DNA of 64,000 nucleotides from an uncultured Gammaproteobacteria bacterium (GCA_964353785.1 CAYGWK010000004.1:22730-86729), one strand, 5' to 3'; positions 1,386-49,400 are shown, counted from the first letter of the stretch. Numbers and translations are program-made. The notes: generated from the letters alone by a model not told the origin.

Positions 1386-2357
1386 ATGGCAATTTTTAAG
1401 CAATCAGACCAATTTGTTCCTCGCAAGCTACCAGGAAAAATTTTAAAGCCAATACCAAAACCAAAAGGAGGAGGAAAATGGATTTTGACTCTTTTTGCCG
1501 GAAGCATAGTTCTAAGTTTAGGTTTATGGGCTTATGGCTCCTTAAAAACAGGAACAGGTATTCAAAAAATAATTAGCCCGCAGGTCGTTCCTACTCCGAC
1601 CCCGACCCCAACCCCCAAAAAAACTGCCGAGATAACCGATAAAGTTTCTGATTTAACCAAAAATTTAAAAGGAGAATATGGGATTTACGTTTTTAATTTA
1701 ACGACTAAGCAAGGATATGGAGTAAATGAAGATGAAATCTTTCCAGCTGCTTCTTTAATTAAACTGCCAGTATTTTTAACTTTATATCAAGAAGCAGAAG
1801 CTGGCAGAATTGATTTGGAGACAAAATATACTTTGAAAAATTCTGATAAACAGGCTGGGGCAGGAGGGATGCAATATAAGCCTGCGGGAACAGTTTTTAC
1901 TTATAGGCAGATGGCAGAATTGATGGGAAAACAATCAGATAATACCGCCGTTTTTGTTTTGCGAAAAATCCTAGGGGATCAAAAAATTCAATCTACTATT
2001 GATAATTTGGGGATGACAAAAACCTCTCTTTCAAAAAATGAAACTAGTCCTCAAGATTTAGGTTTATTTTTTAGAAAATTATATGCGGGTTCAATAGTCA
2101 GCCGAGAGCATCGGGATGAGATTTTGGGATATTTAACCGAAACTTTTGATGAATCAAGAATCCCGGCTGGCGTACCAGAAGGAACGAGAGTTTGCCATAA
2201 AGTCGGGACTGAAATAGGCATTATCTCCGATGCGGGAATCGTTTTTAGCCAAAAACCCTTTATTTTGGTAATAATGTCTGAGAATGTTAAAGAATTAGAA
2301 GCCAAAGAAGTTTTACCAAAAATCGCCAAGGAAGTTTGGGAATTTGAGAATAAATAA
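1386..2357 (+). CDS. class A beta-lactamase-like serine hydrolase, membrane-anchored with a PT-rich linker
   Basis: N-terminal TM helix, PTPTPTPTP linker, SxxK (ASLIK), SDN (QSDNTA) and KxG (HKVGTE) motifs in class A order. Confidence 0.7.
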   Translation: MAIFKQSDQFVPRKLPGKILKPIPKPKGGGKWILTLFAGSIVLSLGLWAYGSLKTGTGIQKIISPQVVPTPTPTPTPKKTAEITDKVSDLTKNLKGEYGIYVFNLTTKQGYGVNEDEIFPAASLIKLPVFLTLYQEAEAGRIDLETKYTLKNSDKQAGAGGMQYKPAGTVFTYRQMAELMGKQSDNTAVFVLRKILGDQKIQSTIDNLGMTKTSLSKNETSPQDLGLFFRKLYAGSIVSREHRDEILGYLTETFDESRIPAGVPEGTRVCHKVGTEIGIISDAGIVFSQKPFILVIMSENVKELEAKEVLPKIAKEVWEFENK

Positions 2358-2394
2358 ACTATTGACATTATGATAAATTTGTCATAAAATAATC

Positions 2395-2691
2395 ATGAAA
2401 GTTTTCTATCTGCCTGAAGTTGCCGATTTTGTAGAGAAATTAAGATATCAGGAACATACTCGATTAACCAGAGTACGAAAGCTCTTTGAAGAATATTCAT
2501 TTCAAATAGGTGCTAAATATATAAAGAAAATTACAGCCTCCGGAATATGGGAATTGAAGGCGGGCAGGATTAGATTGTTTTTATATGTCAAGGGAGATAA
2601 GGCGATAGGGGTTCATATAATTTGGAAAAAATCACAAAAATTGACTATTAGAGATATAAAATTAGCAGAAAGACGAAGCAAACAACTATGA
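2395..2691 (+). CDS. higB: type II toxin, HigB/Gp49-like (RelE/ParE superfamily)
   Basis: 98 aa; GIWELKAGRIRLFLY...WKKSQK motif characteristic of the Gp49/HigB family; 4-bp ATGA overlap with the downstream HTH gene. Confidence 0.7.
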   Translation: MKVFYLPEVADFVEKLRYQEHTRLTRVRKLFEEYSFQIGAKYIKKITASGIWELKAGRIRLFLYVKGDKAIGVHIIWKKSQKLTIRDIKLAERRSKQL

Positions 2692-2981
2692 AAAATAAAA
2701 GAACAAAACTTATTAGCGCTGAAGCATTGCATCGAAAATGGATGAAAGATCCAAAATATCGCCGTGAGTATGAAAAACTTGAGTCAGAATTTCAAATTGC
2801 TCGGCAAATTATTGGAGCAAGGATTAAAAGGAAAATGTCTCAGGAAGAGTTGGCGAAAAAAGCAGGAACTGGACAAGCAGTTATCTCCCGACTTGAGGGA
2901 ATGAACGGCAAACCTTCAATTTCTCTTCTTGAAAGAATCGCCCGCGCCTTGAATACAAAAATAAGGGTTACTATTCAATAA
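2688..2981 (+). CDS. higA: HigA-like antitoxin, XRE-family HTH
   Basis: 97 aa; HTH segment MSQEELAKKAGTGQAVISRLE; translationally coupled to the upstream toxin gene. Confidence 0.7.
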   Translation: MKNKRTKLISAEALHRKWMKDPKYRREYEKLESEFQIARQIIGARIKRKMSQEELAKKAGTGQAVISRLEGMNGKPSISLLERIARALNTKIRVTIQ

Positions 2982-3019
2982 ATTATCAGAGTAGTTTGGG
3001 AGTTTGAGACAAAGTAAAT

Positions 3020-3616
3020 ATGGTAATTATTAATTGGGATACGTTGTTAAAAATAGGCTCTTTAGCAGGATTAGCATCGTTTGTGTGGCTATTGATAAAG
3101 GATCTTGTTGGGTTTTACCGAAAACCAAAATTAGAAATTACATTTACAAAAAACAGAGATTTAAGGAATTTCTTCTTTGAGGATACGAAATGGGAAAGAA
3201 GGTTTGCCAATTTACATATTAAAAACAAGGGGAAAGATACCGCCAAAAGATGCGTTGCTATCTTGAGAGTTTTAACAAAACCACGAGAGGCTACAAATAT
3301 TGAAGAAGAATATGCTCTTCATTGGGCTGGAGTTGATTATTCTGCTCAAACAACCGGCGCAGAACCCGTTGATATAGGTCCCGAACCAAGAAGATTAGAT
3401 GTGGCGTTCACTCAGAATGGTCAGAATATAAATGGGAGTTGGATAGCGATGCCTCTTGCCTTATTGGGATCTTTAAGAAGAAATCAGGCGTATCTTCCAC
3501 CGGGTGAATACGAACTTAAAATTGAGGTTCAATGCGAGAACGGAAGTGGAGATAAAGCAAAATTTAAAATTATTTCTCCTCAGAATTGGGAGAATTTAGA
3601 TTTTGATAAGTTATAA
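3020..3616 (+). CDS. hypothetical protein with N-terminal TM anchor (cassette ORF)
   Basis: ORF with N-terminal hydrophobic helix; flanked on both sides by copies of the 3' end of the upstream hydrolase gene. Confidence 0.5.
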   Translation: MVIINWDTLLKIGSLAGLASFVWLLIKDLVGFYRKPKLEITFTKNRDLRNFFFEDTKWERRFANLHIKNKGKDTAKRCVAILRVLTKPREATNIEEEYALHWAGVDYSAQTTGAEPVDIGPEPRRLDVAFTQNGQNINGSWIAMPLALLGSLRRNQAYLPPGEYELKIEVQCENGSGDKAKFKIISPQNWENLDFDKL

Positions 3617-3807
3617 TATTTCTGGGACTTCTGCGGAAGAAGCTTTCCCGCCATTATCAAAATGGTTTGGGAGTTTGAGATAAAATAAATTTTCTTCTTA
3701 AAACACAAAAAGGCACCGCGAAAAGTAGTTTTGTTGCTCAACGCAACTCGTTACTTCTCTTTGGTGCCTCCTTGCACTATTCAGTTTCTGGAAGGATGTG
3801 TTGGGGG

Positions 3808-4302
3808 CTATTCCAGCGGTGATTCGAGAGACTCCTCGGCCTCTTTGATCTTTGGTTCCAAGACATCAGCAACATCACTTAGTCCCAGTGTGATGACGGC
3901 GGTGCCATCCTCTTCGGAAATCGTTGTTTCTTCTGAAAGAAGGCTAGATGTTTTGCTGGCTGACTTCCGAGTTTCATCAACGTGATGGGCCCTGATCAGG
4001 ATGTTGTCGGAATCTTGGGTTGTCCGGAGCGAGTTTATAACCTGTTCAGCTGCTCCTTCTCCGTTATCCCGATCGTAAAGCCAAGGATCGAGTGATTCAC
4101 CGCTTAGGTCCACCTTCATAACCCGACCCTTGAGATAGTCGAAGTCAGAGCAGCCGCGAGACAAAATCTCTTTGGCTTCTTCGACATCCATCGGTTTAGG
4201 GTCATAATGGAGGAACCCCATTCCTTGTGGTTTGGCCGCGTTGTATAGCGCTGCTAGAACAGCGGCTTTGTCCAATCCCTTCAGATCGATTAAATTAGAC
4301 AT
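3808..4302 (-). CDS. hypothetical acidic protein in a GC-rich foreign-looking segment
   Basis: ORF starting MSNLIDLKG with an AAGGAGA RBS 7 nt upstream; local GC clearly above the window average. Confidence 0.5.
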   Translation of the reverse strand: MSNLIDLKGLDKAAVLAALYNAAKPQGMGFLHYDPKPMDVEEAKEILSRGCSDFDYLKGRVMKVDLSGESLDPWLYDRDNGEGAAEQVINSLRTTQDSDNILIRAHHVDETRKSASKTSSLLSEETTISEEDGTAVITLGLSDVADVLEPKIKEAEESLESPLE

Positions 4303-4519
4303 AAATCTCTCCTTATTTAGTCTCACCTTAATAGGTGGCTTTCTGCCTACCTGGCAACAGATAAGCAAAGAGCCACCTACTCTGATGAGTAATCCTTCCG
4401 CAAACTGTAAAAGTGCAAGAATAAAAATTCAAACAAACAAAAAACAGGCAAGCAAATTAGCCTGAATTTGTTTGGCTTGATATGAGAATAATACCACAAA
4501 TAAACTCAAAAGTCAAATA

Positions 4520-6835
4520 TTATAGGTTCTTGTTCTTTCTCTCTTCCTCAATCTTTTTAATTTCTTCTTCTGTGCAGGAATTTTTTGGTTCGGTGCCAGG
4601 AAGGAAAATTTCTGTTTTTTTGCTTGGGCAGGCATCGCAGGACAAGGTTCCGGTAAGGGTGCAAATTTCAACCCTGACTAAGTTTTCTGGAAGAGAAAAT
4701 TTCTCATCAGGTTTGTCTTTTAAAAGTTCGGCCATGATATTGTGCCAAATTGGCGAGGCGCCGGTCACGCCCGAGGCAACGTAAGACATAGGTGTAGCAT
4801 CGTTGTTGCCGACCCAGGTAACGACCAAGAGATTTGGAGTATAACCGATGGTCCAGTTATCTTTTAAATTGTTGCTGGTGCCGGTTTTAACCGCCACCGA
4901 GGGATGTTCGGGGATATTTAAAAGTGAATTTGGACCAAAGGCTGGAGTTCGAGCTAAGTTGTCAGAAAGAATATCATCTAAAATATAGGCGATCTGCGGC
5001 GAAAGAGCCCTTTCGCCTTCAATTTCCAGCTTTTCCAGAACTTTTCCTTTATAATTTGAGCGTAGCGAAAATTTCAAGCTTTGCTTATAATCTTTAACCT
5101 CCAAAATTGGCTGTAAACCAACTTTCATTCCCAAATTTGCCAGGGTTCCATAAACTACGGCCATGTCAGTCATTTTGACTTCGCCTCCGCCTAAAGTTAG
5201 GGAAAGTCCGTATTGGGAGGGGTCGTTCCAGGTAGTGATGCCCATTTTTTGACCTTGTTCAATCATTCGAGAAACTCCTAAAGCAGAGAGAACTTTAACT
5301 GCCGGAACATTATAAGAAGAACCCAGGGCTATCCTTAGAGGGACATTGCCATGAAATCGGCCATCATAGTTTTTTGGCGAATAAGGAGGTTGTCCAGGAA
5401 CCTGATAAGTTATGGGCGTGTCGGGAATAATGGTGGCTGGCGTAAAACCCATTGAAAGAGCCACCGAATAATTAACTGGTTTAATTGAGGAGCCGGGCTG
5501 GCGGTTGGCGGTGGTGACGTTATAGTTTCCCTGGTTTTTTAAATCAAAATAATCTTTTGAACCTATCATCGCTAAAATTTCTCCGGTTTTAGGATTAGTT
5601 ACCAGGGCAGCTCCATTTGAAATTCGCAAAGATTTTAATTTTTCAACCTCACTTGAGACTTGCTTTTGGGCCAGGTTTTGAATATCCAAATCCAAGGAGG
5701 TTTTAACCTCAAGTCCACCTTCCTCAACCATTTTTTCTCCATATTTTTTAACCAGGAGTTCTTTAACATACATCACAAAATGGGGAGCGAAAATGTCAGT
5801 TTTTTTCAAAACCAGATGGATGTCCTGGGCCGATGCTTCGTCTGCCTGTTTTTGGGTGATAAATTTTTCCTCAACCATTCGGCGCAAAACAAGTTTCTGG
5901 CGCTCTTTGGCAATCTCTGGGTGGGCGCCGAAAGGAGAATAGGTAGTTGGTGAGGCTGGCAAGCCAGCTAAAAGAGCGGCTTCGGCCAAATTTATCTCTT
6001 TGACTGATTTGCCAAAATATAACTGTGAAGCCTCTTCAACCCCATAAGCCGCGCCCCCAAAACCAACCTCATTTAAATACATCTGAAGAATCTCGTCTTT
6101 TGAGAATTTTCTCTCAACCCATAAAGAGAGAATTATTTCTTTTATTTTTCTGCGAATGGTTCGTTCGGGGGAAAGGAGGGCATTTTTAACTAGTTGTTGG
6201 GTAATGGTTGAACCACCCTCGATTTTTCCAGTTTGGACAATTTTTCTGGCAGCCCGAAGAATTCCTTTTGCCGATAGTCCATGATGAGAATAAAATTCAG
6301 CATCTTCAATGGCGACCACCGCCTGGCGCAAAAAAAGGGGAGTTTCTGAAAGAGGAACTAGGGTTCGATTTTCGCTGCGATAAATTTTATAGAGAAGTTT
6401 GCCGTTTCGGTCGTAAATTTTGGTTGAGACAATCTGTTCTCTGGTGGTAAGTTTTTGGGGATTGGGGAGTTCGGAAAAAATAGTAAATAGAAAATAGGAA
6501 ATAGCAGATAGGAAAGAAACAGTTAAAAAGACAAGGAGAACAACCTTTCGAGAAATTTTGGGAAAGCGGATTTTTGGAATTCTGGGAAAACGAATTTTGG
6601 GAAATCTTAAACGAGAAACGTAAGACGCAAAACACGACAAGAGATTTATCAAGAAATGTCCAAGACGAGGAAAAAGGCTGGCAATCGCCAATAGGCAGTA
6701 GGCAATAAGAAGTATTGCCCAAAGGAACGGCTTTCCTAAAACCTCCAGAACTTTGCCAAAAAATTTCCAGGCAGAGAACCCTTTTTTGGGTTGAAGTTTT
6801 TTGGCGGAGTAGATGATTCCTGTCCTGACCGCCAT
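4520..6835 (-). CDS. class A penicillin-binding protein (PBP1a-type transglycosylase/transpeptidase)
   Basis: N-terminal TM; GT51 motif GGSTITQQLVKN; transpeptidase SSIKP (SxxK), SYN (SxN) and KTGTS (KTG) motifs. Confidence 0.9.
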   Translation of the reverse strand: MAVRTGIIYSAKKLQPKKGFSAWKFFGKVLEVLGKPFLWAILLIAYCLLAIASLFPRLGHFLINLLSCFASYVSRLRFPKIRFPRIPKIRFPKISRKVVLLVFLTVSFLSAISYFLFTIFSELPNPQKLTTREQIVSTKIYDRNGKLLYKIYRSENRTLVPLSETPLFLRQAVVAIEDAEFYSHHGLSAKGILRAARKIVQTGKIEGGSTITQQLVKNALLSPERTIRRKIKEIILSLWVERKFSKDEILQMYLNEVGFGGAAYGVEEASQLYFGKSVKEINLAEAALLAGLPASPTTYSPFGAHPEIAKERQKLVLRRMVEEKFITQKQADEASAQDIHLVLKKTDIFAPHFVMYVKELLVKKYGEKMVEEGGLEVKTSLDLDIQNLAQKQVSSEVEKLKSLRISNGAALVTNPKTGEILAMIGSKDYFDLKNQGNYNVTTANRQPGSSIKPVNYSVALSMGFTPATIIPDTPITYQVPGQPPYSPKNYDGRFHGNVPLRIALGSSYNVPAVKVLSALGVSRMIEQGQKMGITTWNDPSQYGLSLTLGGGEVKMTDMAVVYGTLANLGMKVGLQPILEVKDYKQSLKFSLRSNYKGKVLEKLEIEGERALSPQIAYILDDILSDNLARTPAFGPNSLLNIPEHPSVAVKTGTSNNLKDNWTIGYTPNLLVVTWVGNNDATPMSYVASGVTGASPIWHNIMAELLKDKPDEKFSLPENLVRVEICTLTGTLSCDACPSKKTEIFLPGTEPKNSCTEEEIKKIEEERKNKNL

Positions 6836-11195: not shown

Positions 11196-12130
11196 AAAAA
11201 AGAAAACCTGCTCTTCAAAAAATCTTAGTCGACGCCGGCGTTGAAATCGACCTTCCTCGGGCTTATGACGTTTTGGAGAAAAAATCAATTGAGACAGTTG
11301 AGGGAATTTTAAAAGATTATCCAAAAGCCCGGCAAATGTGGGAACTTTTGGTTTTTGATCCTGAAGTTCGAGCCGATTGGGACATGGCCGATTATATTGC
11401 CGTTACCAAATTAAATTTTAATGACCACGGAGAAATTCATGCCAAAATTGCCGCTGCTTCTTCTTTATCAATGCTTGACCTTTTAAGAAAAGCCGAAAAA
11501 AAATCTGATGTAATCTCTTCTGGGGCTGGAGATTGGGACGACGCCTTTTTAGTGGTGACCTGCGCCGCTCTTCTTCATGATATTGGCAACCAAGTCCACC
11601 GAGTTTCTCACGGAGACATTAGTCCCTATTTGGCTGTTCCTATTTTGGACAGACTCTTGCCTTTAATTTACTCGGAAATTGAGAAAAAAACCGAAATTCG
11701 GGGATTTATTCTTCATGCCATAAATACCCATGATGCCGAACCACCACCTCTAACGGTTGAGGCAGCTTTAGTTTGTATTTCTGATGCTTGTGATTTGACT
11801 AAAGGAAGAGGGAGATTAGCTTTTGATTTGGGAAATATTAATATTCATACGGTTTCCGCTCTTTCCATTGATAGTGTGGCGATTTTACCTGGAGAGCAAA
11901 AACCAATAAAAATTATCGTTACGATGAACAATTCAGCAGGAATTTTTCAGGTTGAGGAGGCTTTGGCTTCAAAAATTAACGCCGGACCGTTATCTGATTC
12001 AGTTGAAATGGTGGCGACCACCTATCCCAGAAAAGCAAAAACTGATAAAAGAATTATTTTTGAAATTGAAATGAAAGGAAGAAAATTTGAACCAAGAGGA
12101 GTTAAGAAAGGAGGTGAGAAGGAAAGTTGA
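11192..12130 (+). CDS. HD-domain phosphohydrolase
   Basis: H...LLHDIGN (HD motif) plus downstream His/Asp residues. Confidence 0.7.
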   Translation: MKKRKPALQKILVDAGVEIDLPRAYDVLEKKSIETVEGILKDYPKARQMWELLVFDPEVRADWDMADYIAVTKLNFNDHGEIHAKIAAASSLSMLDLLRKAEKKSDVISSGAGDWDDAFLVVTCAALLHDIGNQVHRVSHGDISPYLAVPILDRLLPLIYSEIEKKTEIRGFILHAINTHDAEPPPLTVEAALVCISDACDLTKGRGRLAFDLGNINIHTVSALSIDSVAILPGEQKPIKIIVTMNNSAGIFQVEEALASKINAGPLSDSVEMVATTYPRKAKTDKRIIFEIEMKGRKFEPRGVKKGGEKES

Positions 12131-12744
12131 AAAAAATTAAATATCTGGTTTTAGCATTAGCGGGATTAGTTTTTGCCATTGGAATTTTGAGCGCTTCGGT
12201 TTGGAGGATCCAGGCCCAAGTCTCAAGTCAAAATTTCAAGGTTCAAACAGTTCCTGAAACCTTAGGAGCAGAAATTACTCCGACTCCCTCGCCGATACCC
12301 ACAGTTGATTATTATCTTCCATACCCTGGGATTTTGCCTGATAACATTTTGTATCCTTTAAAGATGGTCCGAGATAAAATTTTACTAATCTTAACTTTTG
12401 ATTCGGTCAAAAAGGCAGAAAGACTTCTTCTTTTTGCTGACAAAAGGGCCAATGCCGCCAAAGCCTTAATTGAGGGAGGGAAGGTGGAATTGGGAATTTC
12501 CACCATAACTAAGGGAGAAAAATATTTAGAGCAGGCAATTGCCCAGGCTGAAAAAGCCAAACAGGCAGGTAAAGACACCACTGCTCTATATGAAAAACTC
12601 GCCCAAGCAACCCTGAAACACCAAGAGGTCTTAACTGGGGTTTTAGTTAAAGTTCCAGATACGGCAAAAGGGGCAATTCAGGACGCCCTTCGCTATTCTC
12701 GCCAGGGTTATGAGACCGTAAGTAGAGTGATTGAACAGAAGTGA
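12127..12744 (+). CDS. secreted/membrane-anchored hypothetical protein
   Basis: N-terminal signal/TM segment, helical alanine/lysine-rich C-terminal region. Confidence 0.5.
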   Translation: MKKIKYLVLALAGLVFAIGILSASVWRIQAQVSSQNFKVQTVPETLGAEITPTPSPIPTVDYYLPYPGILPDNILYPLKMVRDKILLILTFDSVKKAERLLLFADKRANAAKALIEGGKVELGISTITKGEKYLEQAIAQAEKAKQAGKDTTALYEKLAQATLKHQEVLTGVLVKVPDTAKGAIQDALRYSRQGYETVSRVIEQK

Positions 12745-12905
12745 GTGGTGTATTGGGCTCGGAAATGAATTTGTTGCTTGGATTTGAGATGGCTGCCCGC
12801 TTAGCGGGCACCAGCTCGCGACTGGGAAATTCGTAACTCAAGTTGTGTTCCGCTTGGGTCGCGGCTTGCCACATAAATCCTGCGCAAAAATTATTTCCTC
12901 GTCCT
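12745..12905. repeat. GC-rich noncoding repeat element, copy 1 (candidate structured RNA)
   Basis: Shares GAAYTTGTTGCTTGG, CRAGTTGTGTTYCG, GGCTTGCCA and AAYCCTGCGCAAAARTTAT blocks with copy 2 at 45340-45510. Confidence 0.5.
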
Positions 12906-13020
12906 GTTTGAAATCCTCACAAAAACCGATACAAAAATTACTCAAAATCTTCTCTTGGTTTTTCTTTAAAAATAGCCAAAATCTTCTTATTTTGATATAC
13001 TTTGATGGCTTTATTGCTAG

Positions 13021-13050
13021 TTGACATACTGGATGTAGGGCTTCTATATT
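13021..13050 (+). promoter_or_regulatory. sigma70-like promoter for nrdR-nrdJ
   Basis: TTGACA at 13021-13026, 18-bp spacer, TATATT at 13045-13050, ~40 nt upstream of the nrdR ATG. Confidence 0.45.
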
Positions 13051-13086: not shown

Positions 13087-13530
13087 ATGCGGTGTCCATT
13101 TTGTGGTCATGACCAGACAGAGGTTTTAGAATCAAGGATTTCTGAAGACGGAAATTCTTTCCGAAGAAGAAGAGAATGCGCCAAATGCAAAAAGCGTTTT
13201 ACTACTTACGAGCGGGCTGAAAGAACCCTTTTGGTGACTAAAAAGGATGGCCGGAGGGAATCGTTTGACCGGGAGAAAATTAAAAAAGGAATTCTTTTGG
13301 CTTGTCATAAAAGGCCAGTTTCCCTGGATTTAATTGACGACATGGTTGGTGAGGTTGAGCAAGAGCTTTTGCGAAAGGATTCAGCCGAGATTTCTTCAAA
13401 GACAATTGGTAATGCAGTTTTGAAGAGATTAAAAAAAGTCGATAAAGTCGCTTGGCTTAGATTTGCCAGTGTTTATTTGGAATTCTCTGACCTTTCGGAT
13501 TTTGAGAAAGCAATTGAAAAGGTTTCTTAA
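13087..13530 (+). CDS. nrdR: transcriptional repressor NrdR (zinc ribbon + ATP-cone)
   Basis: MRCPFCGHDQTEVLESR...CAKCKKRFTTYER zinc ribbon followed by an ATP-cone domain; canonical size. Confidence 0.95.
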   Translation: MRCPFCGHDQTEVLESRISEDGNSFRRRRECAKCKKRFTTYERAERTLLVTKKDGRRESFDREKIKKGILLACHKRPVSLDLIDDMVGEVEQELLRKDSAEISSKTIGNAVLKRLKKVDKVAWLRFASVYLEFSDLSDFEKAIEKVS

Positions 13531-13532
13531 AA

Positions 13533-15950
13533 ATGTCTAGTAGGGCAGAGGTAAGACCTCAATATTATCAACACCGCTTTTCTCCAGACAACGGCGAATT
13601 TAGGCAAATGCCTGAGCCTCTTCCTGTCAATCCAGATGGTTCATTTATGGATAGAAGAGAATGGATAAAAGAACAAGCTCAAAAAATTCCCACAATTTCC
13701 GAAGACCTTCCTGATCCAGTCTTATCCGAAAATGGACTTGTAGTTTTAGAAAAAAGATACTTATCTCGAGATGAGAAAGAGAATTTAATAGAAACTCCGA
13801 AAGAAATGTTTTGGCGAGTTGCCTACAATGTTGCGATGGCGGATAAACTCTATAACGGACAAGAAGTTGAAAGGACAGCCAGAGAATTTTACGAAGTTAT
13901 GGCGAATTTAGAGTTCTTGCCAAATTCGCCAACCTTAATGAATGCGGGGAGGCGACTTCAACAACTTTCTGCCTGTTTTGTTTTGCCGGTTGAGGATTCG
14001 CTGGATTCGATAATGGATGCAGCTAAAGCAACTGCCTTGATTCATCAATCTGGAGGGGGTACTGGATTTTCGTTTTCTAGGTTACGACCAGAGGGGAGTC
14101 CAGTGAAATCAAGCGGAGGACAAGCTTCAGGACCTCTTTCTTTTATGAAAATTTTTGATCAGACGACAGAGCAGATTAAACAAGGAGGAAGAAGGCGGGG
14201 AGCAAATATGGGGATTTTGCGAGTTGACCACCCCGATATTGAAAAATTCGTTAATGCCAAGACCAAACCTGGGGTTTTTGAGAATTTTAATCTCTCGGTA
14301 GCGGTAACTGATGAATTCATGGAAGCGGTTAAAGGGGATGGAGAATATGATCTTGTTAATCCCCACACGGGAGAAAAGACCAAAACTAAAGCAGGAGAAA
14401 TTTTTAATCTGATTGTTGAATGTGCTTGGAGGAGTGGAGAACCGGGAGTAGTTTTTATTGATGAAATTAATCGGAAAAATCCTACTTCCCATCTTGGACC
14501 GATTGAATCCACTAATCCTTGTGGCGAGCAACCTCTTCATCCATATGAATCCTGTAATCTGGGTTCAATTAATCTTTCTAAAATGATAAAAGAAGGAAGG
14601 GTTGATTGGGAAAAATTAGAAAAAACAATTAAGGTTGCGGTTCATTTCCTTGACAACGTGATTGATGTGAATCGTTATCCGTTACCCGAAATTGAGAAAA
14701 TGACCTTAGGAAATCGGAAAATTGGCCTTGGGATAATGGGTTTTGCCGATATGCTGGTTCAATTGGGAATTAGTTACGACAGCCAACCAGGGCTAGAAAC
14801 TTCCGAGGCAGTAATGAAATTTATTCAAGAAAAGGGGTATGAAGCATCAGAAGTATTAGCTAAAATCCGAGGTGTTTTTCCCAATTGGGAAGAAAGCCTT
14901 CATCAAAAAGAGGGAAGAAAATTAAGAAATGCGACAATCACGACGATTGCTCCAACTGGGACTATTGGTATCATTGCTGGTTGTTCTCAAGGATGCGAAC
15001 CGTATTACGCTCTTTCGTTTGAAAGAAAGGGAATTCTTGATGGGAAGACAACAATTTTTGAATTAAATCCTTATGTCGAAGAAATTACCAAAGAGGAATG
15101 TTTAGAAGAGGCGGTGATAGAAAGAATTAAAAAGGAGGGAAGTTTAAGGCAAATCCCAGAGGTGCCAGATAGAATGAAGAAAATTTTTCCTACCGCTCTT
15201 GAGATTTCTCCAGAGTGGCACGTAAGGATACAGGCAGCATTTCAAAGACATATTGATAATGCAGTTTCAAAAACAATCAATTTCCCCCAAGAGGCTACCG
15301 CTGATGATATTCGTCAGGCTTATCTTTTAGCTTACAATGTTGGTTGCAAAGGTTTAACAATTTACCGAGATAAATCAAGAGAAAGACAAGTTCTTTATGC
15401 AGGCGAAAAGAGAGAAGAAGTTGGAGAGCGCAGACCACGGTCTCGCCCAGAAGTAACCAGAGGGGAAACAGAGAAAATTAGTCTCGGTTGTGGTCAAACT
15501 CTATATGTAACTATAAATGAAGATAAAGAAGGGCTTTGTGAGGTATTTTGTCAAATGGGTAAGTCGGGTGGTTGTATAACTTCTCATTCAGAAGTAGTGG
15601 GGCGGTTAATTTCGCTTAACCTACGTTCTGGAGTAATCCCTGAAGCAATCATCAAGCAACTACGGGGAATTCGCTGTCCTTCCCCAACGTGGAATAGCGG
15701 GCGTTCGATCCTTTCTTGCGCCGACGCAATCGGTCAGGTAATAGAGAGATATAAAAAAGGAAGAGAGGGTGCCTCTCAAGAATCGTTTTTATCAATAAAA
15801 ATGTCACCGGAGATTAAAAACGAAGGACAGCATGATTCTTCTGAAAATGCCTTAGGTTATTGTCCAGAGTGTCCAGAGTGTGGAGCGATGTTTCAATTTA
15901 GTGAGGGATGCGTCAGATGTCCTGCTTGTGGATATTCTCAATGTGGCTAA
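13533..15950 (+). CDS. nrdJ: class II (adenosylcobalamin-dependent) ribonucleotide reductase
   Basis: LSACFVL, TNPCGEQPL active-site region, C-terminal CPECPECG...CVRCPACG zinc finger typical of monomeric class II RNR. Confidence 0.9.
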   Translation: MSSRAEVRPQYYQHRFSPDNGEFRQMPEPLPVNPDGSFMDRREWIKEQAQKIPTISEDLPDPVLSENGLVVLEKRYLSRDEKENLIETPKEMFWRVAYNVAMADKLYNGQEVERTAREFYEVMANLEFLPNSPTLMNAGRRLQQLSACFVLPVEDSLDSIMDAAKATALIHQSGGGTGFSFSRLRPEGSPVKSSGGQASGPLSFMKIFDQTTEQIKQGGRRRGANMGILRVDHPDIEKFVNAKTKPGVFENFNLSVAVTDEFMEAVKGDGEYDLVNPHTGEKTKTKAGEIFNLIVECAWRSGEPGVVFIDEINRKNPTSHLGPIESTNPCGEQPLHPYESCNLGSINLSKMIKEGRVDWEKLEKTIKVAVHFLDNVIDVNRYPLPEIEKMTLGNRKIGLGIMGFADMLVQLGISYDSQPGLETSEAVMKFIQEKGYEASEVLAKIRGVFPNWEESLHQKEGRKLRNATITTIAPTGTIGIIAGCSQGCEPYYALSFERKGILDGKTTIFELNPYVEEITKEECLEEAVIERIKKEGSLRQIPEVPDRMKKIFPTALEISPEWHVRIQAAFQRHIDNAVSKTINFPQEATADDIRQAYLLAYNVGCKGLTIYRDKSRERQVLYAGEKREEVGERRPRSRPEVTRGETEKISLGCGQTLYVTINEDKEGLCEVFCQMGKSGGCITSHSEVVGRLISLNLRSGVIPEAIIKQLRGIRCPSPTWNSGRSILSCADAIGQVIERYKKGREGASQESFLSIKMSPEIKNEGQHDSSENALGYCPECPECGAMFQFSEGCVRCPACGYSQCG

Positions 15951-18684: not shown

Positions 18685-18758
18685 GGGCACGTAGCTCAGC
18701 TGGTTAGAGCGCGATTCTTATAAAATCGAGGTCCCTGGTTCGAGACCAGGCGTGCCCA
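18685..18758 (+). tRNA. tRNA-Ile with anticodon UAU (TAT)
   Basis: Manual cloverleaf: acceptor GGGCACG/CGTGCCC, D-arm TAGCTCAGCTGGTTAGAGC, anticodon stem CGATT/AATCG with loop CTTATAA, T-arm CCTGG-TTCGAGA-CCAGG; CCA not encoded. Confidence 0.8.
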
Positions 18759-18759
18759 C

Positions 18760-19632
18760 TTAAAGTTCCTCGAGTTTTACCTTTTCTGCCCCGGTTTTTT
18801 CTTTAACGAATTGAAGATATTTTTCGGTGGTTGAAAGTCTTTTGTGACCAGCCAGCTTTTGGAGTAAAACTACTGAGGCTCCGGAGGCTAAATGGTAAAC
18901 TAGCCAGGTATTTCTGAGATCATTAACCTTGGCATTCTCAATGCCGGCAATTCGAAAATAGCGGTCAATTGAGGTTCTAATGTTTCGGACCAATAAAGGT
19001 CTGCCGGTTTTGGTCACAAAAACGCTCTTGTTTTTGGTTTTTGGTCGCTCGGCTAAATACTGGTCTAAAGCAGCCTTGGCGACCTTGTTTAAAGGGATAG
19101 TTCTTTCGGATTGGGACTCGTAAGGTTTGATATAGATTTCACCCTCTTTGATATTAGAAAGTTCAAGTCTTGAAAGTTCCCCAATTCTTACTCCTGTTTG
19201 AAGCATCAGTTCTACCGCGGCGGCCATTCTCGCGTCTTGCCGGCAAGCATCCCGGAGAGCTCGATATTCCATTTTGGAAAGAATTCTTGGCGGTTTAACC
19301 TCGTATTTTGGATGAGAAACAGATGCGGCTGGGTCTTCGTCAACCAATCCTTGAGATTTCAAAAACCTAAAAAAGGTTTTAATTGAGTTGATTTTTCGGG
19401 AAATTGACTTTAAGGTATAGCCCTTTTTGGAAAAGTCTTCTTTGAACTGGTCAAGATGCTCACTTGTAATTGAGGTTACCTGGGTTATTTTTTTACCATC
19501 CAAAAAAGAAACCAGCTGCTCGATGTCTTTACCGTATGCTAAAATGGTAGAGATTGAACGCTTTTGGCTTTTTAAATATTCTACAAACTTTTCGTGAGCC
19601 AAAGTTAGAGAGGTTTGTTCGCCTGCCATAGT
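18760..19632 (-). CDS. tyrosine site-specific recombinase (XerC/XerD / phage integrase family)
   Basis: N-terminal SAM-like domain; C-terminal catalytic region with LAGH..R...Y (HxxR...Y) motif; stop codon 1 bp from the tRNA-Ile 3' end, convergent. Confidence 0.8.
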   Translation of the reverse strand, partial: TMAGEQTSLTLAHEKFVEYLKSQKRSISTILAYGKDIEQLVSFLDGKKITQVTSITSEHLDQFKEDFSKKGYTLKSISRKINSIKTFFRFLKSQGLVDEDPAASVSHPKYEVKPPRILSKMEYRALRDACRQDARMAAAVELMLQTGVRIGELSRLELSNIKEGEIYIKPYESQSERTIPLNKVAKAALDQYLAERPKTKNKSVFVTKTGRPLLVRNIRTSIDRYFRIAGIENAKVNDLRNTWLVYHLASGASVVLLQKLAGHKRLSTTEKYLQFVKEKTGAEKVKLEEL

Positions 19633-19672
19633 AAACGGCGCTATAATATCACTTGAGAGGATATCTGTCAAG

Positions 19673-20026
19673 ATGAGAAACAAACTAATTACTGGGATAC
19701 TCTTTCTTTTTGGTCTCTACCTCATAGTTTCTTTCTCTCGGGATATTTTGGATCTATATCAAAAAAGTAAAGAAATTGAAAAAGAACAGTTTAAACTTGA
19801 AGAACTTCAGGTTAAAAATGAAGAATTAAAAAAGCAACTTGAATATGTCAAAAGTCAGGAATTTTTGGAGAAAGAGGCGCGAGAAAAATTAGGGTTGGCT
19901 AAGGAAGGAGAGGCAGTCGTCATTCTGCCGGAAAATGTTGAGGAGTTAATCAGTGGTAATCAGCCTCAAATCAGCGCTAATCAGGAAGTTCCTAACTGGA
20001 AAAAGTGGCTCAAGCTTTTCTTTTGA
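19673..20026 (+). CDS. FtsB/DivIC-like septum formation initiator
   Basis: N-terminal TM, coiled-coil, AREKLGL motif typical of FtsB/DivIC. Confidence 0.65.
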   Translation: MRNKLITGILFLFGLYLIVSFSRDILDLYQKSKEIEKEQFKLEELQVKNEELKKQLEYVKSQEFLEKEAREKLGLAKEGEAVVILPENVEELISGNQPQISANQEVPNWKKWLKLFF

Positions 20027-20054: not shown

Positions 20055-20127
20055 CGCGGGGTAGTGTAAAGTTGCACGGAAGGCTCATAATCTTCCAGCC
20101 TGGGCGCGATTCCCAGCCCCGCAACCA
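20055..20127 (+). tRNA. tRNA-like sequence with CAT anticodon and noncanonical T-loop (possible degenerate/unusual tRNA)
   Basis: Cloverleaf foldable by hand: acceptor CGCGGGG/CCCCGCA with C1:A72 mismatch, anticodon loop CTCATAA, T-loop CGCGATT lacks T54-T55-C56; encoded CCA; abuts the next tRNA with zero spacer. Confidence 0.35.
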
Positions 20128-20199
20128 GGCAGCGTAGCTCAGTGGTAGAGCGGTATCTTCATAAGATAATGGTCACAGGTTCAAATCCTGTCGCTGCCA
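20128..20199 (+). tRNA. tRNA with CAT anticodon (elongator Met or lysidine-type Ile2)
   Basis: Acceptor GGCAGCG/CGCTGCC, D-arm TAGCTCAGTGGTAGAGC, anticodon loop TTCATAA, T-arm ACAGG-TTCAAAT-CCTGT. Confidence 0.8.
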
Positions 20200-20202
20200 C
20201 TA

Positions 20203-28696: not shown

Positions 28697-29472
28697 TGAG
28701 AGAATTTAAAGAAGAAGAACTTAAAAAATTAAAAACAGAAGGACAGGTAACAATAATTGGGGGTTCCAGTCTTTTTCATGGAGCGCCGATTTTAGCCTTA
28801 AAAACAGCCTCTCGAATGGTTGAGATGGTCTTTTTTGCCTCACCTGAACCTTCGGTTGGTAAGGTGGCAGAAGAGTTAAAAAGCAAACTTTCCTCTTTTA
28901 TTTGGGTGCCCTGGGAAGAGGTAGGAAAATATATTAAAAAATCAAATGCAGTTCTCATCGGTCCTGGTTTTATGCGTCATCGTAGCGAGAGTAAGGAAAT
29001 AACCGAGAAATTTTTATCAAAATTTCCAGAAAAACAATGGGTGATTGATGCCGGTTCGCTCCAGGTGATGGAAACAAAATTTATTCCTAGAAATGCCATT
29101 TTGACACCAAACATAAAAGAATTTGGAATACTTTTTGGAGTTGAAGCCAGTGCAAAAATTATATCCTCGCTCGCTCAAAAACACTCTTGTGTTATTGTTT
29201 TTAAAGGTCCAGAGACAATTGTTTGTTCATCCAAAGAATGCGTTTCGGTTAAAGGCGGAAATAGGGGACTTGAGAAAGGTGGAACTGGAGATGTTTTAGC
29301 AGGATTAATCGTGGCTTTAGCCGCCAAAAATCCGCCATTTCTGGCCGCCTGCGTTGCTTCCTGGATTGTAAAGCGCACAGCTGACCAGTTATATAAAAAG
29401 GTAGGTTTTGCCTACAACGCCGACGATTTAGCCGAAAAAATTCCCGAAGTTTTGGGAGAATATCTTCGTTAA
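28696..29472 (+). CDS. nnrD: ADP-dependent NAD(P)H-hydrate dehydratase (YjeF C-terminal domain)
   Basis: GGS...G..I GPG, and GTGDVLAG signature of the YjeF-C carbohydrate-kinase-like family. Confidence 0.75.
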   Translation: MREFKEEELKKLKTEGQVTIIGGSSLFHGAPILALKTASRMVEMVFFASPEPSVGKVAEELKSKLSSFIWVPWEEVGKYIKKSNAVLIGPGFMRHRSESKEITEKFLSKFPEKQWVIDAGSLQVMETKFIPRNAILTPNIKEFGILFGVEASAKIISSLAQKHSCVIVFKGPETIVCSSKECVSVKGGNRGLEKGGTGDVLAGLIVALAAKNPPFLAACVASWIVKRTADQLYKKVGFAYNADDLAEKIPEVLGEYLR

Positions 29473-44533: not shown

Positions 44534-44719
44534 ATGGCAAAGCTGCCTCAAGTTGATAAAGGAACTTGTATTGGGTGCGGAACCTGCACGGTTTTAGCCC
44601 CAAAGACATTTAAACTTGGAAAAGACGGAAAAGCAGAGGTAATCAACCCGCCAGGGGATGAAGAGGAAAAGATTAAAGAAGCGATTGATTCTTGCCCGGT
44701 AAACGCTATTAAATTATGA
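44534..44719 (+). CDS. small ferredoxin-like Fe-S protein
   Basis: CIGCGTC...CP cysteine pattern in a ~60-aa protein. Confidence 0.65.
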   Translation: MAKLPQVDKGTCIGCGTCTVLAPKTFKLGKDGKAEVINPPGDEEEKIKEAIDSCPVNAIKL

Positions 44720-45300
44720 ACGAAGAACGCAAAATTACTAATTTTACTGTCCCAATACTAGTTGTTTTGCTGGCCGTAGCCGCCTTTTTGGCTGGCAGTT
44801 TCTTTACCCGGATTCAATATCTTGAGAAAGGCAAAGCGGGAACTGCCCAAGTGACGCCAACGCCTCAGGTAGTTGGAGAACAAGAGTCCACAGAAGAATT
44901 GCCAACGACGATTGGGCAATTTTTAGTGACAAAAAACGAGGTTTGTAAAGAGGATGACAAACCCTTGGTTTATTTCTTCGGTTCCAGCACTTGCCCCCAT
45001 TGTACCTGGGAAAAACCGGTGATGCAAAGGGTGGTAAAAAAATTTACGGGCCTTATTTCTTATCACGAAAATTTTGATAGCAAAGCAGATCAAGATGTAC
45101 TTGAGAGATTTCAAGATATTAATCCAGGCTACGTGCCCTTTTTGGTTTTCGGATGCAAATATGCCAGACTAGGAAGCGGGGAGACAGACGGAGAAGCGGC
45201 AGAGGAGAAAAATTTAACCGCCTTGATTTGTAAATTAACAGAGGGTGAGCCAACCGAGGTGTGTAAGGAAGTTTCTGACTTGATTGAGCAAATAGAATAA
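44716..45300 (+). CDS. membrane-anchored thioredoxin-fold thiol:disulfide oxidoreductase (DsbA-like)
   Basis: N-terminal TM, FGSSTCPHCTWEKP CxxC active site. Confidence 0.65.
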   Translation: MNEERKITNFTVPILVVLLAVAAFLAGSFFTRIQYLEKGKAGTAQVTPTPQVVGEQESTEELPTTIGQFLVTKNEVCKEDDKPLVYFFGSSTCPHCTWEKPVMQRVVKKFTGLISYHENFDSKADQDVLERFQDINPGYVPFLVFGCKYARLGSGETDGEAAEEKNLTALICKLTEGEPTEVCKEVSDLIEQIE

Positions 45301-45339
45301 TTTTGCAGGAAAGTGGTTTTAAATTCCCGCCAAAGGCGG

Positions 45340-45510
45340 GATTTTTTTGTGTTTTGCGACTTAAAGAGTTCGGGTATGAACTTGTTGCTTGGTTTCGTCA
45401 TGGCATCCCCGCACCAATTCTGGTGCGGGGTCGCCCTCGGATTCTGAAATCCGAAAGTCGAGTTGTGTTTCGGAGTCCTCGGGCTTGCCAGGTGAAACCT
45501 GCGCAAAAGT
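45340..45510. repeat. GC-rich noncoding repeat element, copy 2 (candidate structured RNA)
   Basis: Conserved blocks shared with 12745-12905; internal hairpins GCACCAATTCTGGTGC and CGGATTCTGAAATCCG. Confidence 0.5.
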
Positions 45511-45588
45511 TATACCCTCACTCTTCGATCTGATAGTCTGATTCTCTGATCCTCTGAGTTTTCCGAGTTTTCTGATAGAATATTCTAG

Positions 45589-45861
45589 ATGGCTCATACC
45601 ATCGTCCATCACCTTTTTATTGCTTTTAGGGCGATTGTGCGGGGTTTGGTGCTTTTAGCAGTCTGGATTGCGGTTTCCTTAACTGGACTCTTTTTCTGGA
45701 GCCAATTTTCCTCACCAATAAATCTTATAATCGGCGGACCTTTGTTTTTAATTGGGGTGATGATGGGTTTGTCTACCTTATACGAGACAACTGTCGGGAT
45801 TATCTCCTGGCGGTGGGGGAAAACCCATTGTCCTTTTTGCCAGAATAAGGCTTCTTCTTGA
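45589..45861 (+). CDS. small membrane protein, hypothetical
   Basis: 90 aa, two TM helices, C-terminal CPFC. Confidence 0.4.
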   Translation: MAHTIVHHLFIAFRAIVRGLVLLAVWIAVSLTGLFFWSQFSSPINLIIGGPLFLIGVMMGLSTLYETTVGIISWRWGKTHCPFCQNKASS

Positions 45862-46457: not shown

Positions 46458-49400
46458 ATGACTGCCCAAGAAAAATTAAAAATTCTTCATAAAGTTTTAA
46501 AAGAAGGTTCTTCGGTTTCTTCTGTGTGTCGCCAAAACAAAATTTCCCGAAAAACTTTTTATTTTTGGAAGAAAAAATATTTATCCGCTGGGCCGAGGAA
46601 TAAGACATCTTGTTTGGAGAAACGCCATTTAAGAGGCCTACAGCATCCCAGAGGCTTAAAGCTTCGCTTTAAAAAAGACATTTTGAGGCTAGCAACACTT
46701 CACCCAGAACTTGGGAGCCACTCTCTTAGCAAAATCTTAAAAGAAAAAGACAAATTTTTGTCAAATCACGGGGTCTATACCTTATTAAAAGAGTTAGGTC
46801 TTGAAACTAGAGAGAAAAGAAAAGAATTTGCAGGTTATTATCGTAGTCCGTTAAGGCTTTTACCAGAGACGAGGAAGCGATTGGTGGAGGAGGTTGTCCT
46901 GGTTGGCAGAGGAATAAGTGAGGCAGCCAGAGAATATAAAGTTAGCCGGAAAACGCTTTGGAAATGGGCAAAAAGGTATAAAAAAGCCCAGGAAGCGCAG
47001 ATTGAGCTTGTATTGGCTCTCAAGGACCAAAATCCAACTGGCTCGGCTCATCCTCGAGGAACACCGGAATGGCTGGAAAGGAAGATTTTGGAGCATGTGG
47101 TTCGAAATCCAGAATATTCAACTCATAAATTAGCCCAAATTATTCCTCAAATCGGCAATCATGGGATACAGAATGTTTTATTTCGAAATAGTTTGAACAC
47201 TTTTGATAGGAGACTGGAATATGCTCGAATTCATGCTCCTGTTTCCCTAGTGCAACCAATCACTGGCTGGTTGGATCGCTTGCGAAGCGTCTGGCAGACT
47301 TTTGTTCCGACTATCGCTCCCGCTCCTCCCCCCAAGCTAATCAAACCTTTTTTGCTCTCCCTAGGGTCTTCTTCAGCTTTAGCTCTTCTTTTTCTTCTCT
47401 GGCTTCAGATGTTTTCTGGACAATCACTTTCTAGTAAATTAGGTCTATTTTCTGCTTCAATTTCTTTATTTGTTGGCTCTCTCTTTTTCTTATATTCAAT
47501 GAAATATTACTTTACTTTGGCAATAGTGCTCTCCTTTTCAAGTCAAACAGGACCCTTCGACTCCGCTCAGGGTAAAGAATCAGGAGAACAGGGAATGAAA
47601 GGCTGGTTAGCCAGAATATTTGGGAGAAATGGAGAGTGGAGAATGGAGAATGGAGAAAAACTTATTGCTGGAGGACTTCAACCAAACCTGGAACATATAA
47701 AGCTCAAGCGTTATCCTTTTATCTCTGTCCACCTACCTTTTTATAATGAGAAGAAAGTGGCCGAGCGGATTTTATCTGCCTGTACTTCTTTTGATTACGA
47801 GAACTATGAAGTAGTGGTCATTGATGATTCAACTGATGAGACGACGACCATTGTTCAGCGGTTTGCTGATCAATGGAATAAACAAATAAATACCAATAAA
47901 CCAATGATTAGAGTCATTCACCGTCCAACTCGGCAAGGATTTAAGGGTGGAGCCCTTCGGGAAGCCTTAAAACACACTAATCCCAAAGCCGAATTTATCG
48001 TTGTCTTTGATGCTGATTTTATACCGTACCCGGATACGCTGGAATTATTTATTAAGTATTTCAAAGTAAATAACAATGGTTCAGAAGACTACATTAAAAA
48101 CAATGTTGCCGCTGTTGCCGGATACCAGTGGCATGTTTTGAATAAATCAGAGAATTGGATAACCAGGGGAGTGAGAACAGAATATTCAGGCAGTTATGTC
48201 ATTGAAAGACCTGGACAGGAGATTTTAGGGGCAATGAAACTTATTCATGGTTCAGTTTACGCCATAAGAAGCGATCTTTTAAAAAAGATTGGTTGGGGAA
48301 CTTCAATTACCGAAGATTTTGAATTAACCCTTCGACTATACGCTCAGGGCTACAAAGTCATTTACACTCCTTATATTCAAGGACCGGCAGAGTGCGTCTC
48401 AACTATCAAGCGTTTAATCCGCCAAAGAATGCGTTGGAGCGAAGGACACTCACATTGTGTAAAGAAGATGTTTTTAAGGCTCCTTAGCACTCCTCGCATG
48501 AATTTGCCAGAAAAACTGGAATTCTTATACATCTCTCCCTACTATCTTCAGGCTTTTTTCTTTTTAGTGGGAACTTTTTCCTGGCTTTTAGCGGAAACTG
48601 TTTTTCGCGCCCGACTGCCTTTCTGGACCTCTTTATGGGGCTGGAGTTTGGTTTTAACCAATTTCTTTGCCCTACCTTTAATGAATGCCGTTGGTTTATT
48701 TTTGGAGGAAGCCGAGGAGAAAGACTATTTAGGTCTTTTGTCTTTTGTTGCCCTTTCCTATATTTTAGTTCCTTTTCAAGCCTATGCTTCAGTTAAAGGC
48801 TTTTTGGAAAAACAAGAAGGACCTTGGTTTCGGACTCCAAAAACAGGCTTAATTACTGATATCTTCACCCGAGGAAAGTTTTATCGCTGGATTTCGGGGA
48901 TTATTCCCGGGCGCATAGCGCCCGCGATGAGCACAGATATCAGTGCTAATCCCTATCTCGCTTTGGCGACGGCCAATAATCAGTTTAATCAATTTAAAAT
49001 CAGGCGCCGGCATTTAAAATGGGTGGGAAATTTAAGCGTGGTTGGAGTTAGCTTGATGAGTATTATTTTACTGATGATGGCCCCTCTTATTCCCCTTGCT
49101 TCTGCTCCAGCCTCGGCTCAAACAGGCGGTTTTAGAAGTCTTAAAAATGCTGTTCCTTCTTCCCAGGTAAAATTGGCGAAGGAGGTAATCGAAAGCCCGG
49201 TCAATGTCAGTTATGAACTGGGTGAGGGCAGTTTGGAATATATTTTTCATCCTGAACCAAGGGTGAGAGTCAAACTAGGCAATAAAGAAATAGAAACCAG
49301 GGTGGCTAAATCTGACGGCGGGGGCAATCCGCTTCCAGAAAAGGCTTACAAGGAGGGAATCATTTATACTTATCGGGAAATTTTTGAAGGTGTTGATCTC

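Follow-up and report, generated by a model that had tools for sequence, protein, structure and literature searches.

The GC-rich intergenic segment located between the DUF5667 and nrdR genes of the window (the whole 64,000-nucleotide stretch of DNA that was analysed) is a copy of a previously undescribed non-coding interspersed repeat of about 150 bp. A covariance model together with pattern scans identified 17 distinct copies of this family across Shapirobacteria-like Patescibacteria, and their alignment strongly supports a fold of the single strand that is conserved and rich in compensatory changes. The explanation that we favour, with about even confidence, is a non-autonomous repeat, mobile or recombining, on whose folded single strand an enzyme encoded in trans would act. 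The first-pass annotation of this DNA had described a two-copy family and offered structured RNA and miniature mobile element as candidates. Two is the exact number of copies in the window, as determined by a filter-off covariance-model search, and not that of the family. As to its nature, both the fold and the signals of mobility and repetition were found. A miniature transposable element in its strict sense agrees with the data only in part, as inverted arms are present and a target-site duplication is not, and a free-standing RNA gene is not supported.

An exact-pattern scan of 185,579 species genomes gave four true matches, all of them in Betzabe_MAG191 (Patescibacteria; hereafter MAG191), and the nine remaining hits were unrelated chance matches. 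The covariance model, which was built from six copies, revealed three more copies within the 32 kb fetched from MAG191, giving a total of at least seven in this genome. A degenerate three-block pattern yielded ten metagenome loci, six of which were distinct, and further copies in relatives came from loci fetched via proteins homologous to those encoded in the flanks. Among named relatives, Candidatus Shapirobacteria is the closest. The copies are distributed into subtypes A, B and C plus a more distant form (L025:2615), and there appear to be tens of them per genome, not hundreds. Phage records, plasmid records and IMG/VR contigs were without similar sequences. Two short contigs (L001 and L038) stop inside the element, as is usual for repeats. 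Words similar to the 3' arm that were found inside ORFs (window 29147-29168; L013 3515-3530) were judged to be ordinary coding sequence on inspection. Full-text literature searches turned up no descriptions of this element or of interspersed structured repeats in Patescibacteria, and such repeats are apparently new to the literature on these bacteria.

In the common fold, a long closing rod (P1-P3) leads to a three-way junction, from which a GC hairpin that varies (P4) and an arm that is conserved (P5-P6) branch off. Two complementary arms of about 22 nt, TGGCTCGGGAACGAATTTGTTGC and GCAAAAATTGTTCCCTCGCCA, delimit the unit and form helix 1. P1 extends over approximately 22 bp and is interrupted by a 2x2 internal loop of pyrimidines and by a bulged G that is conserved, and P5 carries a bulged U. 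Over the 17 distinct sequences, 93.4% of the cells of the whole fold are paired vs about 47% when the partners are slid, a control that is somewhat generous since the structure was derived from those same sequences. Compensatory changes, for which a covariation analysis had been proposed, are common in the family alignment: 28 of the 53 pairs are doubly changed, and none of 500 shuffles reached the values of the fold. Helix 1 (18 pairs) is 98% paired in the 17 copies, with double changes in seven pairs; in helices 2 and 3 the pairing reaches 100% and double changes are seen in six of 11 pairs, and in helix 4 they affect five of six. Pairing is 94–100% in P1-P4 and 80–85% in P5 and P6, the register of which is less certain. 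The double changes between subtypes are unambiguous, P2 being GGAUUU/AAAUCC, GGUUUC/GAAACC, GAGUUU/AAACUC or GCAUCA/UGAUGC. The most conserved sequence is held by the apical P5-P6, as CUCAAGUUGUGUUCCG in subtypes A and B and as the variant GGUGGCRYUGUUUYCGG in subtype C.

Both window copies (Table 1) are intergenic and GC-rich (0.52 and 0.54 for copies 1 and 2, respectively, vs about 0.40 for the window), and the four collinear blocks that had been reported in them are all exact and in the same order. Matches with no mismatch to CRAGTTGTGTTYCG and the other long blocks occur in the window at these two copies only. The extents first given, 12745-12905 and 45340-45510, were correct in location and their ends have been refined to those of Table 1. 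Both folds are far more stable than those of shuffled sequence, with z = −3.9 for copy 1 and −7.4 for copy 2. One of the two hairpins noticed in the variable segments, GCACCAATTCTGGTGC, corresponds to P4 and covaries throughout the family, whereas the other, CGGATTCTGAAATCCG, has a competing pairing, GGAUUC/GAGUCC, which is kept in subtype B.

Table 1. Position of the two window copies of the repeat, their structural parts and an adjacent probable remnant.
Feature	Position	Strand	Remarks
Copy 1, complete element, subtype A, 150 nt	12755-12904	+	Model R1, 163.6 bits, E = 2.6e-36
Copy 1, P1 5' arm	12756-12777	+	Partner 12884-12903
Copy 1, P2 and P3 5' strands	12780-12793	+	Partner 12868-12880 (GGCTTGCCA block)
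Copy 1, variable GC-rich hairpin P4	12795-12809	+	Length and loop vary among copies
Copy 1, P5-P6 arm	12813-12866	+	Conserved CAAGTTGTGTTCCG loop region at 12839-12852; register less certain
Copy 1, P1 3' arm, includes the GCGCAAAAATTAT block	12884-12903	+	
GAAATCCTCACAAAAA, likely 3' remnant (P2/P1 strands) of an older subtype-B copy	12910-12925	+	Immediately 3' of copy 1
Copy 2, complete element, subtype B, 158 nt	45366-45523	+	Model R1, 131.3 bits, E = 9.7e-29
Copy 2, P1 5' arm	45367-45388	+	Partner 45503-45522
Copy 2, P4 hairpin (CCCCGCACCAATTCTGGTGCGGGG)	45406-45429	+	
Copy 2, P5-P6 arm	45433-45485	+	Conserved CGAGTTGTGTTTCG at 45459-45472
Copy 2, P1 3' arm	45503-45522	+	

Copy 1 starts 10 nt past the stop codon of the DUF5667 gene (12127-12744) and its end is 182 nt from the start of nrdR (13087-13530), very close to the approximately 180 nt upstream of the nrdR-nrdJ operon estimated by the annotation. 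The gap between nrdR and nrdJ is of 2 nt, the RNR being of class II, and a good match to a promoter for nrdR (TTGACA-18-TATATT) is placed downstream of copy 1, at 13021-13050. Copy 2 had been located between a DsbA-like gene and a gene for a small membrane protein. We found there a thioredoxin/DsbA-like gene with its own terminator (45325-45341) upstream and, 65 nt after the end of the element, an ORF of 90 aa. Both window copies are therefore upstream of a gene and co-oriented with it and, in addition, P1 closes the structure as in an aptamer; these features would suit a riboswitch-like or cis-regulatory leader for the downstream gene (nrdR-nrdJ or the small membrane protein). Nevertheless, the gene contexts of the family effectively refute this possibility, to which we give hardly any credit. 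Copy 1 is upstream of the nrdR promoter and so outside its leader, the genes downstream of the copies are unrelated (nrdR, nrdD, comEC, LOG-like, femAB-like and others), antisense copies and copies placed between two convergent genes exist, and no expression platform is present.

With Rfam 15 at the gathering threshold, the only hits in the entire window were three tRNAs, and when the two copies and three loci with subtypes A, B and C were scanned by E-value, only noise was returned, far below gathering. ARAGORN detected neither a tRNA nor a tmRNA at the element. No family matches, and the annotation was right in not recognizing RNase P, SRP, tmRNA or 6S RNA in the conserved blocks. A hammerhead-type junction was discarded on reading the strands, which are without the CUGANGA/GAAA core. 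A conserved peptide was also rejected: the overlapping ORFs are spurious, and no ORF is conserved because the differences in length between copies are not multiples of three. Conservation does not extend past the P1 arms, and neither a promoter nor a terminator was found to be conserved with the repeated unit; the flanks are unrelated between loci and, as a consequence, such signals are not part of the unit. A promoter candidate within copy 1 (TTGCCA-17-AATTAT) reached only 9/12 and is absent from the other subtypes, copy 2 gave no promoter-like match, and no terminator was found after either copy. A free-standing RNA gene is not supported by these results.

Whether the folded strand is RNA or single-stranded DNA was considered from several features of the alignment. 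The two strands fold almost equally (−69.9 vs −67.2 kcal/mol; consensus, −44.9 vs −47.4 kcal/mol), so that folding energy favours neither strand. On the modelled strand, the wobbles of the well-supported helices 1-4 are all G-U/G-T (eight cells, about five events, with no A-C). In P6, most copies have an A-C mismatch on the modelled strand and G-U on the other. Hairpins of mobile DNA such as REPINs frequently show compensatory changes too (PMC3116915) and hence covariation alone cannot separate RNA from DNA. The data could be accounted for by paralogous genes for a structured small RNA, trans-acting or protein-binding and expressed or processed, with a selected fold and a secondary turnover. 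Strong covariation in all the helices, invariant unpaired blocks such as AGUUGUGUU and GGCUUGCC, G-U without A-C wobbles in helices 1-4 on the modelled strand, the location of the copies on the G-rich strand like most genes, and the lack of a conserved ORF are all on its side. Even so, we consider these genes an unlikely explanation, if one to be taken seriously. The unit ends exactly at the P1 arms and neither promoter nor terminator travels along with it; several copies are wedged 3–14 nt between genes; and the changes of subtype at orthologous sites, the remnants, the chimera and the element-free near relative described below are unusual for a functional RNA. Besides, the distribution is very narrow, with one of the 185,579 species representatives matching the pattern, and the A-C mismatch of P6 is on the modelled strand in most copies.

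The multiple copies, the exchange of subtypes and the presence or absence at a site indicate that the element behaves like small mobile DNA and not like a housekeeping RNA gene. Copies of the same subtype at unrelated loci are 85–95% identical, as illustrated by L004-2 and L014, which are both in MAG191 (95%), and by window copy 2 and L017 (92%). Copies at orthologous sites are of differing subtypes and only 65–67% identical, while their flanks are more than 90% identical. At the DUF5667|nrdR site, whose flanks, including the nrdR promoter region, show more than 90% identity across genomes, the window has subtype A followed by the 3' remnant, MAG191 (L004) has a 5' remnant together with subtype C, and L025-L030 have subtype B. 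The same site in Shapirobacteria CG10 (L031) is occupied by a chimera with an A 5' arm, a B 3' arm and an unrelated interior, and in L032/L033, from a relative of 68% identity, the element is absent. Similarly, the thioredoxin-like site has subtype B in the window and subtype A in L024, L038 and L039-L041. Arm remnants of older copies were found beside complete copies in L004-1, L013, L017, L020, L015 and the window. In L013 these remnants correspond to the ends of the L025:2615 form, and the one in the window is likely to derive from a subtype-B copy, judging from its resemblance to GAAACCTTCACAAAAA, which is part of the subtype-B copy occupying the orthologous site in L025.

Only MAG191 has a copy inserted between nrdR and the RNR gene, from which it is separated by 5 and 12 nt, the corresponding window genes being 2 nt apart. 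The fetched loci did not provide a filled and an empty site with identical flanks from which the insertion ends and the target could be defined; nrdR|RNR and beta-lactamase|PBP vary beyond the element, the former in having different RNR genes and the latter in a 2.2-kb insert of the window. That insert occupies the 2357-4520 spacer and contains ORFs at 3020-3616 (+) and 3808-4368 (−), with no Pfam match. In relatives, the beta-lactamase-like|PBP spacer carries a diverged copy of the element (L025 2602-2773), which makes it one more intergenic site of variable content. The replacement of one subtype by another could also proceed via ectopic gene conversion or recombination between strains, without transposition.

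Two other arrangements were observed at individual sites. At L006 7682-7944, a direct repeat of 27 nt, TTTTGTCTGGGTTGTAAAATTGTTTTC, is found at either side of copy L006-2 and corresponds to the last codons of a comEC-like ORF, and a third copy of TTTTGTCTGGGTTGTAAAATTGTTTTC follows 9 nt after the second. This looks like an insertion, or an unequal recombination, that recreated the end of the gene. On the other hand, the thioredoxin-like proteins encoded at window 44716-45640 and L039 1271-2200 are only 69% identical, and identity between both sequences exceeds 90% in the terminator, in the spacer that follows and at the beginning of the next ORF. This suggests mosaic recombination around the copy 2 element at that site.

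Of the hallmarks of a miniature transposable element, for which a check had been advised, the terminal inverted arms are present, as shown by the pairing of helix 1, and the target-site duplication is not: the longest direct repeat at the boundaries had a mean length of 2.06 nt vs 2.27 nt in a control with mismatched flanks. This is as expected for Y1 single-strand transposition, which leaves no target-site duplication. No fixed target word was found in the 5' flanks, which are merely AT-rich (TTT/ATT/AAA). Neither an autonomous partner with the same arms nor solitary or distant pairs of arms were found in approximately 0.4 Mb of fetched DNA. In the 64-kb window we detected no catalytic transposase, HUH protein or reverse transcriptase, and no enzyme could be linked to the element among the fetched loci and the window. 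The sole recombination enzyme of the window is an Xer-like tyrosine recombinase (18760-19683), whose gene is syntenic and of housekeeping type in all the relatives, including the one lacking the element.

The only Y1_Tnp gene seen (IS200/RAYT-like, 237 aa) is present within L034 1210-2010, downstream of a thioredoxin-like gene. It shares with copy 2 the upstream neighbour gene and differs in the downstream one. This protein was rejected as the cognate enzyme of the element: its gene has at each side the hairpin CCACCTTAGAGGTGG, which is absent from the element and from the window. The CCACCTTAGAGGTGG 15-mer is also found inside the leuS ORF of MAG191 (L006 3953-3967), where it encodes HLRGG and may represent an in-frame insertion of the repeat.

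At about ten of the 13 independent sites, the element is co-oriented with the flanking genes, and at L013 and L015/L016 it is antisense to both neighbours. When the element was masked in the GC skew calculation, the modelled strand was the G-rich strand at all of the approximately 13 independent sites, and random orientation was rejected by a sign test (p ~2–5e-4). At L013 and L015/L016, the neighbour genes have a negative skew on their own coding strand, which means that the skew is regional and not an effect of the coding strand. These sites contradict an orientation imposed by local transcription. About 86% of the window genes are also on the G-rich strand and, with this baseline, the p-value of 13/13 becomes ~0.14; an ordinary leading-strand RNA gene remains compatible with it.

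The G-rich strand is conventionally the leading strand and, as such, the template of the lagging strand in the parental duplex. From this general knowledge we infer that the modelled strand is the lagging-strand template in the genomes studied here. In the window, the cumulative GC skew climbs monotonically from 1 to 64000 and about 86% of the ORFs are on the + strand. This monotonic skew would place the 64 kb on a single replichore arm, or would reflect a strand disparity of the whole chromosome as in some Microgenomates, which show an atypical whole-chromosome GC skew with no simple replication signal (PMC7143001). The active strand of IS200/IS605-type elements is also on the lagging-strand template (PMC5027513).

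The prevalent co-orientation bears as well on the possibility of a cis-acting passenger of operon mRNAs which, in the manner of REP, ERIC and BOX, would provide a stable 3' or intercistronic hairpin protecting the upstream mRNA from 3' exonucleases or giving an RNase III site, with selection acting on the hairpin as RNA. The start of the element 3–13 nt past the stop codon at the roughly 10/13 co-oriented sites and the very high stability of the fold (−56 to −86 kcal/mol) agree with it. No U-tract is found behind the element, so it need not terminate transcription. We find this role quite improbable, however, as L013 and L015/L016 are antisense to both neighbours with an unchanged GC-skew polarity, simple protection needs neither a conserved three-way junction nor invariant loops, and copy 2 sits past a canonical terminator.

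Another alternative is a folded-DNA site for a tyrosine recombinase, in the manner of the attC of integrons or of the CTX phage attP used by XerCD, at which adjacent DNA would be exchanged. In such sites structure is kept and sequence is variable, as occurs here with the bulged G in P1, the bulged U in P5, the internal loops and the variable branched tip; copies are directly 3' of ORFs, the L031 chimera combines A and B arms, and the RNR genes beside nrdR vary among relatives, with a MAG191 copy at the junction. The Xer-like gene of the window could provide the recombinase, but it is conserved and syntenic even where the element is absent. Furthermore, GTTRRRY/RYYYAAC cores, an integron integrase and a cassette array are all missing, and the copies are dispersed, those of the window being 32 kb apart. 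We give the recombination site a small probability.

Our preferred explanation, the substrate repeat acted upon in trans, can be worded as a mechanism. The folded strand would most likely be the G-rich one, exposed as the lagging-strand template, and the enzyme would most likely be a single-strand transposase of Y1/HUH type, with a tyrosine recombinase as a second candidate. Short intergenic spacers would receive the new copies, often 3–13 nt past a stop codon, landing preferentially in or beside older copies. Insertion would leave no target-site duplication, and the resident copy would be overwritten or displaced. When the host operon is transcribed, the element would ride in the mRNA as a very stable hairpin, with whatever effect this may have on the message. 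A more specific version, which is doubtful in our opinion, is that of a new class of mobile element of the CPR defined by its structure, whose three-way junction of about 150 nt, as single-stranded DNA on the lagging-strand template or as an RNA intermediate, would home into its own copies and replace them in a cassette-like style. An enzyme that had so far no link with substrates of this kind, for example the housekeeping Xer-type recombinase, a domesticated Y1 protein or a reverse transcriptase, would then act on it, and the conserved P5-P6 loop would serve for recognition or as a guide.

The element joins, as a new member, the bacterial structured interspersed repeats REP/REPIN, ERIC, Correia and PATE, from which it is set apart by a full-length covarying three-way junction, the cassette-like replacement at orthologous sites and the strict polarity. 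IS200/IS605 derivatives normally have subterminal hairpins and a specific 4–5-nt target, not long complementary termini. With the REPINs and REP-BIMEs mobilised by RAYT/TnpA-REP, the element has in common that it is short, non-coding, intergenic and multi-copy, that it forms a single-strand hairpin and that compensatory changes are present (PMC3116915). In addition, neither leaves a target-site duplication, and a Y1_Tnp gene exists in the lineage of the element. However, it has no REP doublet, its arms are non-palindromic, its interior contains a three-way junction, no cognate RAYT was found and its copies appear to be tens per genome instead of hundreds. The PATEs, which are IS200/IS605 derivatives, share with it the absence of target-site duplication, a strict polarity with respect to the replication strand (PMC5027513) and the recognition of structure, which is putative for the element. 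They nevertheless carry separate subterminal hairpins and insert 3' of a 4–5-nt word, whereas in the element one end pairs with the other along about 22 nt and no target word is visibly conserved.

Correia/NEMIS, ERIC/IRU, RUP and BOX repeats also resemble the element in being of 100–160 bp, with terminal inverted arms, intergenic, tolerated within operons and divided into subfamilies. In contrast to them, the element produces no duplication of TA or any other sequence, its orientation is non-random, it covaries along its whole length, and no parent IS was found. Finally, the attC sites of integrons are likewise defined by structure over sequence, contain bulges, internal loops and a variable, sometimes branched tip, and are located 3' of ORFs, but the element lacks R/L cores on either strand, intI and arrays, and its length is at or above the upper range of attC.

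Patescibacteria have tiny, gene-dense genomes that are generally thought to be poor in mobile DNA. In these genomes the family flags hot spots where intergenic DNA is turned over and genes may be replaced, as in the swap of RNR class beside nrdR. The element breaks metagenome assemblies and can be mistaken for a non-coding RNA gene, since it covaries as strongly as a real RNA family does. Through its strict polarity it offers a marker of replication direction for uncultured genomes, and it also provides a route to finding an active single-strand DNA enzyme in these bacteria.

Some observations on neighbouring genes were also made. The RNR beside the conserved nrdR varies among close relatives: it is a class II NrdJ of 805 aa in the window and an 879-aa form in L032, and in L025-L031 it is a class III NrdD accompanied by NrdG, as is apparently the case in MAG191 (nrdR-RNR regions: window 13087-15950, L004 1957-5404, L025 11003-13984 and L032 10945-14039). 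Two large paralogous ORFs of the window, 46458-50954 (1498 aa) and 56546-59998 (1150 aa), display an odd domain fusion in which N-terminal HTH domains of transposase type (HTH_Tnp_1, HTH_28, HTH_32 and HTH_23) are joined to a family-2 glycosyltransferase domain; copy 2 precedes the first of these ORFs by about 0.9 kb. At 18685-18759 a tRNA-Ile is encoded whose anticodon, UAU, is an uncommon bacterial way to read AUA, and a tandem pair of tRNA-Met(CAU) with no spacer is located at 20055-20200.
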